This document shows, one piece after another, positions 14,895 to 16,151 of a stretch of DNA of 30,616 bases. The DNA is taken from positions 1 through 30,616 of IMG/VR virus record IMGVR_UViG_2671180357_000001. One strand, 5' to 3'. The notes under the pieces were generated by a model that saw only the letters and a program-made list of their open reading frames with translations, had not been told where the DNA came from and made no database searches. Position 1 is the first letter of the stretch, and every line of letters starts with the position of its first letter. The position numbers and the translations under genes were made by a program. The DNA is from a virus. Its lineage: Duplodnaviria > Heunggongvirae > Uroviricota > Caudoviricetes.

Positions 14895-15137
14895 TTATGC
14901 TCCGGTGGTGAACAGGTCTAACGCTTCCTTCGATTTACGCACCGCTTCGATAGTGCGGGTCGTGATATCTGAATTAGCGCCGCCTGACTGGAAGTGAATT
15001 TTGAATAGCTCAAGCTTCAGCTCGTCAGTGCCGATGAATTGAAATGCTTCCTCTGCGGCTGCGTTCTGGTTCATGACCAGTTTGTAAATCTCTAACTGGA
15101 ATTTCTGTTCTTCAGTCATGGGAATAATCTCTGCCAT
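14895..15137 (-). CDS. Hypothetical protein (80 aa) upstream of the terminase genes
   Basis: ORF with ACGGAG 6 nt before the ATG; no family recognised. Confidence 0.5.
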   Translation of the reverse strand: MAEIIPMTEEQKFQLEIYKLVMNQNAAAEEAFQFIGTDELKLELFKIHFQSGGANSDITTRTIEAVRKSKEALDLFTTGA

Positions 15138-15490
15138 TGTTGGCTCCGTTTATCCGTTAAAAGGGATATCAGTTAAGTTATCCCGTGTAGGGTATAAGCC
15201 ATTGTCGAGACCACTCATTGAATGGTCTCTGCAATAACCGATGTCTTTCCATCAGTCCGCCACCACAAAGAATCTTTTTTGCCATAAGGCAGGAGGTTCA
15301 TCTTTCAGTGGCTGCCAGTGTTATTTCCCCACTTACTGGCTTGGGTTGCTTCGCGGTACTGCCGTTAACTGGTGGCGCACAGATTTAGTTAAATCTGTTC
15401 TCGCCTGAACTATCTTTTACATACCCGGATTGTGGGGATGTAAATCACGGTTTCATTATCAAGCCCACCCGTAGATGGGCTTTGGAATGG

Positions 15491-16009
15491 TCACTTTGGC
15501 AGTCCGGGGATCGATATTTGCGCCTGCTGCTCAAGCCTTTCGATTCTTGCTATGAGTTGCGGTTTTTTGATCCTGCCCCAGCGGTTCAGCAAGCGTCCTG
15601 ACATACTGGCAACATCCTTTTCCTTCATGAACTCCAGCATTAACTCGTTGTGCTCTCTTTGGTATGAGTGAGCCATCTCCATCAGCCTGTCACGCATCCA
15701 ATTAAATGCTTTGATAAACGCCTCTTTGATGGCGGCAGCTTTTTTGCCGGTAAACGACATGATGATGTACATCGCGCCGTCTTTGGAAATTTCATATTCA
15801 ACATACTGATTACCCTTGTGTTCATAGGTAACCCGCGAAAAGTTGCTGGTTAGAAATTCATCCGAACAGTCTAGCTTTTCGATTTTCTGAATGATGTGGT
15901 GATGCTGCTTGTCGAAGTAAGCTGCTACCTTGCGGGAGGTTGTGATCACGCGATCACCAGAAACAACCACCATGTCCCGGAAATCGAGATTAGCCAATTG
16001 ATGATTCAT
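15491..16009 (-). CDS. rha: Rha-family phage regulatory protein
   Basis: ORF 15491..16045 trimmed to Met13; N-terminal pattern VVVSGDRVITTSRKVAAYFDKQHHHIIQKI is typical of Rha proteins; P22 carries rha at this position. Start uncertain. Confidence 0.65.
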   Translation of the reverse strand: MNHQLANLDFRDMVVVSGDRVITTSRKVAAYFDKQHHHIIQKIEKLDCSDEFLTSNFSRVTYEHKGNQYVEYEISKDGAMYIIMSFTGKKAAAIKEAFIKAFNWMRDRLMEMAHSYQREHNELMLEFMKEKDVASMSGRLLNRWGRIKKPQLIARIERLEQQAQISIPGLPK

Positions 16010-16151
16010 AGCGTCTTTACCTTTTAGAAAGTGAGCCTGTCTCACAGAAAAGCCGCCCGAGAGAGGTCGCCACCTATAACGGCATTTCTCAGGCTCGCTT
16101 ACTGAAAGGCTCTCGTTAATATGCGCGTGAGATGCGCTGTGAAATTCAGAT

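Follow-up and report, generated by a model that had tools for sequence, protein, structure and literature searches.

The rha and orf80 genes in the late-operon accessory region of a P22-like phage

Introduction

Genes that stand side by side between the lysis and packaging modules of a tailed phage may have arrived as one inserted unit or as separate acquisitions. This question is raised by a 30,616-nt stretch of viral DNA (hereafter the window; IMG/VR record IMGVR_UViG_2671180357_000001, Caudoviricetes), in which a sequence-only reading had placed a Rha-family regulator gene and an unassigned 80-residue open reading frame (ORF) in a single accessory cluster inserted within the late operon. 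The rha gene of phage P22 belongs to the late operon, and its product impairs growth in hosts that are defective in IHF. Such an IHF-linked block of lytic growth is known only for the rha genes of phi80 and P22 (Mozola and Friedman 1985; Henthorn and Friedman 1995, cited in PMC4936722).

Results and discussion

Overall organization of the locus

All features described here lie on the minus strand of the window, in the order Rz, terminator-like hairpin, rha, 353-nt noncoding spacer, 80-residue ORF (orf80) and small terminase gene. Rz (positions 16208-16675) belongs to the lysis cassette and lies upstream of rha, as do the lysozyme and holin genes. The gene for a P22-type gp3 small terminase (14327-14815) and the large terminase gene lie downstream of orf80. 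Both ORFs are hence located in the late operon, flanked by lysis genes on one side and packaging genes on the other, as originally noted. The pair had also been described as bracketed by a hairpin after Rz and a structured spacer. The hairpin is present, but the spacer (15138-15490) sits between rha and orf80 and does not enclose them.

The locus is a P22-type accessory region, the variable stretch between the lysis and packaging genes of P22-like phages. The corresponding P22 genes are ordered gene 15/Rz1, rha (orf201), orf25, pid, orf80, orf59c and gene 3. Position, orientation and flanking genes are alike in P22 and the window, and a Rha-family gene follows Rz in both. The gp3 proteins are about 76% identical (tblastn), the Orf80 proteins 98.8% identical and spacer positions 117-312 91% identical. 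The window Rha is, however, a different allele from P22 Rha (45% identity; 172 versus 201 residues). The two genes also end at different points: window rha stops ahead of spacer position 1, and P22 rha adjoins position 117. The window is also devoid of the antisense pid moron, orf25 and orf59c of P22, which makes it similar to the PS34-type site, described as 'empty' with regard to pid.

Homologous regions are found in P22, HK620, Sf6 and CUS-3. The HK620 hkbK-hkbL-hkbM-hkbN region and Sf6 genes 65-68 share with the window the slot architecture, the 5' leader (98% identical in HK620) and the spacer, and they encode an identical Orf80 protein. The HK620 cargo differs in consisting of a KilA-N+ORF11CD3 gene plus hkbL, and Sf6 differs in carrying a Gp49-family gene, gp66, inserted within the spacer at position 251/252. 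Both phages also differ from the window in their terminase type and in the presence of hkbN. In the window, the site that holds hkbN in these phages and orf59c in P22 is a second cargo slot, located between orf80 and gene 3 (14816-14894), and is empty. Across loci, the gap between orf80 and gp3 measures 39, 83, 208, 414, 499 or 804 bp.

A near-identical arrangement is annotated in Escherichia phage APC_JM3.2 (MG197996; relatives JEP4 and Gally), with 98.5% nucleotide identity over 95% of window positions 14800-16250. Its annotations read 'Rha family transcriptional regulator', 'hypothetical protein' (orf80) and 'DNA-packaging protein'. APC_JM3.2 additionally contains a small gene-65-like ORF after Rz, and the homology to the window begins just past that ORF. 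Papers on P22 have described the rha/orf80 arrangement for decades, and this 98.5%-identical copy is annotated in GenBank. The observation of rha next to an 80-residue ORF is real but ordinary and already known, with nothing new as stated, because the stretch is a well-known variable P22-like region with a swappable rha and a separate conserved small gene. The region most probably holds two unrelated accessory genes that are inherited independently.

Rha protein

The rha gene (15491-16009) encodes a two-domain basic protein of 172 residues (pI 9.3). Translation is assigned to the ATG at 16009, which is common to the annotated homologues; positions 15491-16045 delimit the longest GTG-started frame. 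The N-terminal domain (residues 24-107, in query numbering with one extra N-terminal residue) matches Phage_pRha (PF09669) with 84.1 bits against a cut-off of 29.9, which bears out the family assignment of the sequence-only reading. The C-terminal helical-hairpin domain (residues 116-169) matches ORF11CD3 (PF10549; 83.9 bits). Matches are also obtained to TIGR02681 (76 bits; cut-off 45.95) and to PHROG 518, 'Rha-like transcriptional regulator' (E = 2e-80). The protein belongs to the Rha/KilA-N/Bro/T5orf172 class and to the same Pfam family as the phi80 and P22 Rha proteins, and it shares the late-operon location of P22 rha. The pairing of a Rha N-domain with an ORF11CD3 C-domain recurs in more than 100 homologues, and mosaicism is observed at the domain level within rha.

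An AF2 model of Rha (pLDDT 85.7) yielded no significant Foldseek match in the PDB; the top weak matches are winged-helix DNA binders with E values of at least 0.14. A sequence search retrieved no Rha homologue from the PDB, a literature search found no functional study of the Rha mechanism, and PADLOC assigned neither Rha nor Orf80 to a defence system. The likeliest role of Rha is that of a DNA-binding regulator or an antirepressor-type factor, which would be expressed late and would target host or co-resident elements and not virion production.

Orf80 protein

The orf80 gene (14895-15137) encodes an acidic 80-residue protein (pI 4.7) with a predicted four-helix structure. It matches DUF2560 (PF10834) over model positions 1-72 of 72 with 147.7 bits (cut-off 25; E = 1e-43) and is 98.8-100% identical to P22 Orf80, HK620 HkbM and Sf6 gp67. 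The earlier label 'unassigned' is consequently superseded by a named family, although the accompanying remark that the ORF has no recognised function holds, as Pfam, PHROG and NCBIfam list none. The PDB contains no sequence match to Orf80, Foldseek returned nothing below E = 2 for its AF2 model (pLDDT 81.5), and only uncharacterised phage proteins were retrieved from BFVD. A profile search of 1.84 billion representatives for domain fusions of DUF2560 gave 74 clusters, almost all of them stand-alone proteins of ~80 residues. The few long matches consist of multiple short stretches that look like coiled-coil noise and were set aside. Literature searches on DUF2560, which also covered the spacer and the Rha mechanism, turned up no functional study and yielded nothing beyond the papers on P22 pid and the one on P22 small RNAs.

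In P22-like phages, orf80 lies 5' of the small terminase gene, next to it or one cargo slot away, and it precedes at least four different, unrelated small terminase (TerS) families. HK97-type phages, which keep just the first 27-28 codons of orf80, are the only orf80-lacking relatives seen among loci that were all retrieved through orf80 or the adjacent spacer. Orf80 homologues with 36-75% identity occur in Serratia and Shimwellia and in Klebsiella and Salmonella phages, with the length and 17 invariant residues kept. The gene is a conserved fixture of P22-like phages and not a recent insert, and it keeps its place at the 5' edge of the packaging genes whichever terminase type follows.

Cargo slot between Rz and orf80

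The interval between Rz and orf80 ranges from 308 to 1917 bp across 92 related loci, nearly all of which encode an identical Orf80. The slot is occupied by Rha in 33 loci (two alleles), by Gp49/Sf6-gp66 in 20, by KilA-N+ORF11CD3 in 9 and by a Tad2-like protein in 6. Other loci contain KilA-N+P63C, T5orf172/GIY-YIG or nothing, and the empty slots correspond to intervals of 308-452 bp. The window-type Rha accompanies Orf80 in 13 of the 92 other loci; in the others, the slot next to orf80 holds the P22-type Rha (45-48% identical), unrelated genes or no cargo. Conversely, the rha cassette lies directly after the spanins of Enterobacter phage CobraSix, an unrelated siphovirus without orf80. The accessory status ascribed to both genes is well founded: the rha slot is empty or differently filled in relatives, and P22 orf80 is reported as not required.

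The exchange joints fall within about 5 nt of the cargo start and stop codons, and the swapped unit is almost exactly the coding sequence of the cargo, from start to stop. On the 5' side, a conserved leader (16010-16156) ends at the cargo ATG and is common to phages with Rha, KilA-N or GIY-YIG in the slot. The leader homology extends over window positions 16005-16176, stopping no more than about 5 nt from the ATG (98.3% identity in HK620), and it reaches further upstream into Rz in HK106 (96.7%) and phiKp_30 (89.5%). An in-frame 'MRQAHFLKGKDAM' extension precedes three different cargo proteins. On the 3' side, a hairpin element starts from the cargo stop codon. The rha gene occupies an exchangeable slot delimited by these two elements, and recombination in the slot flanks passes entire genes, at times only one domain, from one lambdoid phage to another.

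The slot shares several properties with lambdoid morons and boundary sequences (Juhala/Hendrix; 'bsq' as annotated in Sf6), including presence or absence at one site, a terminator-like hairpin and short conserved sequences at mosaic joints. Unlike morons, window rha has no own promoter detectable in a consensus scan. Its G+C content (0.46) is modestly lower than that of Rz (0.54) and gp3 (0.50). The cargo of the post-lysis slot includes Rha, KilA-N, a Tad2-like anti-Thoeris protein, an annotated anti-CRISPR, homing-nuclease-type genes and P22 pid. The locus is therefore a good hunting ground for new host-takeover or anti-defence genes, and its value is that of a worked example of a cargo hot spot.

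Relationship between rha and orf80

Rha and the 80-residue protein could constitute one functional two-gene module that was inserted as a whole. The genes are adjacent, co-oriented and both non-essential in P22-type phages, and the pair is found in the window, APC_JM3.2 and 12 more loci. The census of slot contents already largely refutes such a module: the same Orf80 also stands beside the other Rha allele, KilA-N, Gp49, Tad2-like or GIY-YIG cargo or an empty slot, and CobraSix carries the rha cassette without orf80. Moreover, several independent recombination joints lie in the 353 nt between the two genes. Joint function is accordingly very improbable, and the single inserted cluster of the sequence-only reading is not borne out; rha and orf80 are not a cluster but are inherited independently. 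The short ORF, which has no known function and adjoins a highly conserved noncoding region, might alternatively be a chance frame in the leader of the packaging operon. This explanation is refuted by the codon-position pattern and has practically no probability left. Nucleotide diversity among 78 nucleotide alleles is three-periodic (0.006, 0.0007 and 0.069 at codon positions 1, 2 and 3) and reaches 0.087 at 4-fold sites. The 80 viral-contig loci are the best protein matches to Orf80, so the lack of amino-acid change looks inflated, but annotated phages that were not picked by protein identity also exhibit 6-8 synonymous versus 1-3 non-synonymous changes. A GGAG Shine-Dalgarno sequence 6 nt upstream of the ATG, the length and invariant residues retained by the diverged homologues, and the confident AF2 model likewise speak against a chance frame. 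The orf80 gene is under purifying selection.

Given a real gene at the 5' edge of the packaging genes, Orf80 could be a packaging or head-assembly accessory factor, such as a modulator of the small terminase or of pac recognition, and belong to the structural module. Its invariable position there, its overlap with the TerS start in some loci (start offset +13, 26 loci), its late-operon location and its strong conservation are consistent with such a role. Identical Orf80 proteins nevertheless precede at least four unrelated TerS families, so there is no co-variation with the presumed partner, and other cargo (hkbN, orf59c and others) can separate orf80 from TerS. HK97-type phages dispense with all but the first codons, and a P22 derivative with a resistance cassette in place of orf25, pid and orf80 still propagates lytically; its authors report orf80 to be unnecessary for lytic growth or lysogeny. 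A packaging role is hence unlikely. Orf80 has no structural or packaging match in Pfam, PHROG, NCBIfam or the PDB, and its gene is not a known head-assembly gene. Orf80 is a strongly selected, narrowly distributed, reportedly dispensable, small acidic helical protein, and its role may lie in action on the host or in conflict between phages, not in packaging.

Transcription of the accessory genes

An intrinsic-terminator-like hairpin follows Rz (16157-16177; GAGCCTCGCGATGCGGGGCTT, then TTTTTAT) and has a 9-bp stem with six GC pairs. In HK106, a rho-independent terminator is annotated at the same site. A further terminator-like hairpin lies 3' of rha, and a PR'-like site is found just downstream of Q. 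A consensus scan of positions 14700-16400, which a weak or non-canonical promoter could escape, detected no sigma-70-like site against 1.9 expected. Since the interval contains no such site, expression would depend on Q: rha and orf80 are probably transcribed when Q-antiterminated polymerase coming from the late promoter reads through the post-Rz terminator. The P22 small RNA P22F maps upstream of P22's own rha, which counts against a promoterless leader; a P22F counterpart upstream of rha is absent from the window.

Noncoding spacer

The spacer between rha and orf80 has an RNA fold z-score of -5.8 on the late-sense strand. Scans of the window for tRNAs and Rfam families gave no match, and a permissive Rfam scan gave only chance-level matches, such as Proteo-phage-1 with 16.8 bits against a gathering score of 42. 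The spacer contains two copies of a 37-nt hairpin element. Copy 1 (15454-15490; CCATTCCAAAGCCCATCTACGGGTGGGCTTGATAATG) lies directly 3' of the rha stop codon and forms the 3' boundary of the cargo cassette, and copy 2 (15200-15237; TTATTGCAGAGACCATTCAATGAGTGGTCTCGACAATG) is a diverged direct repeat of copy 1. Across the variants of the element, compensatory changes are observed in four of the seven stem pairs. The copy-1 element also follows the KilA-N operons of HK620 and Stx2-1717, HK97 gp73 and the GIY-YIG gene of HK106.

On the 3' side of copy 1, an optional ~70-nt module (15375-15447; spacer positions 44-116) forms two perfect hairpins, including the palindrome TTTACATCCCCACAATCCGGGTATGTAAA. 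The module is present in about a quarter of related loci and missing from HK97, HK022, Kapi1, PS34 and phiKp_30. At the opposite end of the spacer, the orf80 leader (15138-15199) contains a GGGATA...TATCCC hairpin followed by TTTT and then by the Shine-Dalgarno sequence of orf80. The leader is nearly invariant, with a mismatch fraction of about 0.005 (roughly 80 sequences) and a diversity of 0.017.

The conserved core of the spacer (15238-15374) is homologous to the published P22 small RNA P22G, with 93.5% identity between window positions 15222-15374 and P22G nucleotides 50-204. Nucleotide diversity at spacer positions 156-250 is 0.022, compared with 0.087 at the 4-fold sites of the adjacent orf80. 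Covariation within the core is uninformative because variation there is almost nil. Two small ORFs in the spacer, a 28-residue sense frame (MNLLPYG...) and a 55-residue antisense frame, were considered and rejected as coding: the commonest polymorphism is at a second position, the ATG is lost in two sequences, and an in-frame upstream TGA is conserved. When a 237-nt query (15138-15374) was compared with 5426 E. coli genomes, 2552 of them had a match to some part of it. Most of this core-containing stretch is present in roughly one in five complete E. coli genomes. None of the matches listed coincides with an annotated RNA gene; only the edges of neighbouring genes are annotated under them. A literature search on the spacer sequence found no functional study.

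These features suggest, as a tentative reading that we consider possible but not the probable one, that the spacer is a functional unit in which cargo-end hairpin elements bracket a selected, small-RNA-yielding, protein-free cassette. Under this proposal, the ~37-nt stem-loop ending in GAYAATG would mark the 3' end of exchangeable lambdoid late-operon cassettes, and it appears to serve both as an RNA hairpin of the late transcript and as a homology patch for cassette exchange. The core would be under purifying selection as the source of a stable small RNA derived from the late transcript, the counterpart of P22G. If the proposal is true, Rha and Orf80 are neighbours of an undescribed, widespread phage RNA element. 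The spacer is more interesting than the gene pair, and its unannotated, conserved noncoding core beside orf80 is the item of this locus that most deserves an experiment.

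Organization of the rha–orf80 locus

The whole region from Q to the portal gene lies on the minus strand of the window. In transcription order, a Q-type antiterminator gene (17900-18388) is followed by the genes for a holin, a lysozyme, and Rz (16208-16675) and Rz1, and a strong terminator-like hairpin is located directly after Rz (16177-16157). The Rha-family gene rha (15491-16009) comes next and is separated by a 353-nt spacer with no credible ORF (15138-15490) from an 80-aa ORF (orf80; 14895-15137). A 79-nt gap (14816-14894) then leads to the gene for the P22-type small terminase gp3 (14327-14815), which precedes the large terminase and portal genes. 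ORF, family and fold scans bore out the genes, flanks, hairpin and structured spacer recognized in the sequence-only reading. The rha frame that it drew at 15491-16045 is real, but position 16045 belongs to the longest GTG-started frame, whereas annotated homologues start at the ATG at 16009, yielding a 172-aa product. Likewise, the spacer is structured (relative to shuffled controls, the late-sense strand has z = -5.8 and the opposite strand -3.9) but separates rha from orf80 and does not bracket the pair. Scans of the window found no tRNAs or Rfam families. The stretch from orf80 to gene 3 varies as well: in relatives this second slot spans 39-804 bp and can hold hkbN/orf59c or other small genes.

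This arrangement is already known. Escherichia phage APC_JM3.2 is 98.5% identical to window 14800-16250, and its annotation labels the same three genes Rha family regulator, hypothetical protein and DNA-packaging protein. The homologous region of P22 reads gene 15, Rz1, rha, ORF25, ORF80, ORF59C and gene 3, and the window represents the empty, PS34-like state of the site that houses the antisense moron pid in P22. The locus is thus the accessory region already familiar from the late operons of P22-like phages, in which rha is a swappable cassette and orf80 a conserved, dispensable gene without known function.

No sigma-70-like promoter was found in 14700-16400 (1.9 expected). A PR'-like site (TTGACA-17-AACACT; 17893-17865, minus strand) is located just downstream of the Q gene, where the late promoter PR' is expected, and both rha and orf80 are co-oriented with the late operon. 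These sequence features suggest that rha and orf80 would be expressed by Q-dependent read-through across the post-Rz terminator.

Rha protein

The assignment of the first ORF to the Rha family was confirmed by matches to Pfam Phage_pRha (84.1 bits; cut-off 29.9), TIGR02681 and PHROG 518, and its C-terminal domain is ORF11CD3 (Pfam, 83.9 bits). Rha is basic (pI 9.3), and its confident AF2 model (pLDDT 85.7) comprises an alpha/beta N-domain spanning residues 10-83, followed by a long helical hairpin at residues 89-163. A Foldseek search of the PDB with this model returned no significant relative, and the best weak matches were winged-helix DNA-binding proteins. P22 rha (orf201) is reported to belong to the late operon and to encode a product that impairs lytic growth when the host is IHF-defective (PMC4936722).

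Mosaicism is observed inside rha between window 15491-15640 (minus strand) and positions 1349-1550 of the locus of the Klebsiella phage phiKp_30. The phiKp_30 Rha is 51% identical to that of the window overall, with 98.5% identity in the last ~150 nt, which correspond to the ORF11CD3 domain, versus ~50% in the N-domain. The C-terminal domain of the window Rha is also present in the HK620 KilA-N protein. Exchange occurs inside rha too, at the domain level.

Independent assortment of rha and orf80

Rz, orf80, rha and gp3 were positioned in 13 annotated phage regions and in 80 viral contigs, the latter encoding the same Orf80 as the window or a nearly identical one. The Rz-to-orf80 interval, a slot for exchangeable cargo, spans 308-1917 bp in these loci. 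Window-type Rha (at least 99% identity) is present in 13 other loci, and about 20 carry P22-type and related alleles, whose Rha shares just 41-51% identity with that of the window; neither kind is present in the rest. Interval ORFs were clustered and their representatives scanned against Pfam, which identified Rha (33 loci in all), the Gp49/Sf6-gp66 family (20 loci), a 91-aa unknown protein (11), KilA-N+ORF11CD3 (9) and a Tad2-like protein (6), along with KilA-N+P63C (HK97 gp73 type), KilA-N alone, a second Rha type and T5orf172/GIY-YIG proteins. The interval is essentially empty in five loci. Conversely, the rha cassette (window 15451-16137), composed of the leader, the gene and the 3' hairpin, recurs with 95.8% identity at 977-1664 of the locus of the Enterobacter siphovirus CobraSix, where it immediately follows the spanin genes. 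CobraSix belongs to an unrelated genus and has no orf80. Given the varied slot contents beside near-identical Orf80 and the CobraSix rha without orf80, Rha and Orf80 assort independently. The earlier proposal of an inserted accessory cluster was therefore half right: the region is accessory, but the two genes form no cluster.

In Kapi1-type phages, the slot (970-1491 of the Kapi1 locus) encodes a protein with a Tad2-like domain (Thoeris anti-defence), and the slot gene of phage Louie (639-1109 of its locus) is, by its annotation, a putative anti-CRISPR gene. These occupants suggest that the slot is an anti-defence hot spot.

The borders of cargo exchange are sharp. Upstream homology to phages with other cargo covers window 16005-16176 and ends ~5 nt or less from the rha ATG, and downstream homology restarts ~5 nt or less from the rha stop codon. 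The leader is 98.3% identical in HK620, and its homology runs upstream into Rz in HK106 (96.7%) and phiKp_30 (89.5%). As an in-frame extension, MRQAHFLKGKDAM, the common leader precedes Rha, KilA-N and GIY-YIG proteins alike.

Hairpin element downstream of the cargo

A 37-nt hairpin element, CCATTCCAAAGCCCATCTACGGGTGGGCTTGATAATG, lies immediately 3' of the cargo stop codon (15490-15454, minus strand), and a diverged second copy is found at 15237-15200 (minus strand; two matches versus 0.16 expected). In related phages, the element follows many different cargo genes. The motif GAYAATG, with which the element ends, occurs 139 times in 96 kb of Rz-to-orf80 intervals (~12 expected) and lies at the 3' base of this type of hairpin in all 40 of the commonest contexts listed. 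Across 20 variants, pairing of the 7-bp stem is kept in 97.9% of cells, whereas shuffles reach 84% and slid partners 24-53%; these pairing statistics are limited by the selection of the variants via this motif and by their relatedness. Compensatory double changes are observed in four of the seven stem pairs, one of which takes C-G, G-C, A-U and G-U. The stem wobbles are G-U on the late-sense strand and would be C-A mismatches on the opposite strand. In two loci, copy 1 is fused to the sequence past copy 2, so that the 254 nt between the copies behave as a gene-free cassette. An optional ~70-nt module (15375-15447, minus strand), which only about one in four related loci carries, contains a pair of perfect hairpins, among them the palindrome TTTACATCCCCACAATCCGGGTATGTAAA (15416-15444).

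Conservation of Orf80

The 80-aa ORF had been considered unassigned. Its product is a full-length member of Pfam DUF2560 (147.7 bits) and is 98.8-100% identical to P22 Orf80, HK620 HkbM, Sf6 gp67 and epsilon34 gp69, and it is therefore not unassigned, although the family indeed has no known function. DUF2560 is tiny, with 93 clusters at 90% identity, all enterobacterial, and only 74 representative clusters in 1.84 billion proteins, nearly all stand-alone and ~80 aa long. A clade in other P22-like Salmonella phages is 43-44% identical, and copies in Klebsiella phages are 36-39% identical. The AF2 model of Orf80 is a four-helix protein (pLDDT 81.5) with no match in the PDB and only uncharacterised matches in BFVD.

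Among 90 loci, orf80 has 78 nucleotide alleles. Synonymous divergence from the window allele is 0.10-0.17 and non-synonymous divergence ~0. Codon positions 1, 2 and 3 have diversities of 0.006, 0.0007 and 0.069, compared with 0.087 for 4-fold sites. The choice of viral contigs as best protein matches biases these values. The annotated phages, which were not picked by protein match, show 6-8 synonymous versus 1-3 non-synonymous changes. Identical Orf80 precedes at least four unrelated small-terminase families, and further cargo can separate orf80 from the small terminase (gaps of 39-804 bp). Together with the reported dispensability of orf80 in P22 and its truncation in HK97-type siphoviruses (see below), these observations argue against a terminase-specific role and suggest an accessory function that may be directed at the host or at conflict.

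In HK97-type siphoviruses the spacer is retained, but orf80 is cut down to its first 27-28 codons, which places a mosaic joint inside the gene. PHROG 23132 appears to be built on this remnant. The remnant is located upstream of the HNH endonuclease gene gp74 in HK97 (~1796-1880 of its locus), HK106 and HK022.

Spacer core

The spacer core is the part of the locus worth pursuing. Numbered from the rha side, spacer positions 156-250 and 291-353 show a diversity of 0.017-0.022, three to five times lower than that at orf80 4-fold sites (0.087). The core barely varies, leaving covariation no signal on its internal structure. Small ORFs of the spacer were considered as genes, and coding was not supported. 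Window 15222-15374 (minus strand) shares 93.5% identity with nt 50-204 of P22G. This 204-nt small RNA of the sense strand, which has no known function, was reported in Salmonella infected with P22 and in vesicles of these bacteria (PMC13397905). No RNA gene is annotated under the matches listed for the 237-nt stretch 15138-15374 in complete E. coli genomes; most have no feature, and the rest overlap only the edges of adjacent Rha or Gp49 genes. Some part of this stretch matches in 2552 of the 5426 genomes, and at least 80% of it in 1064. It is also found in HK97, HK022 and HK106, and partly in Stx2 phages.
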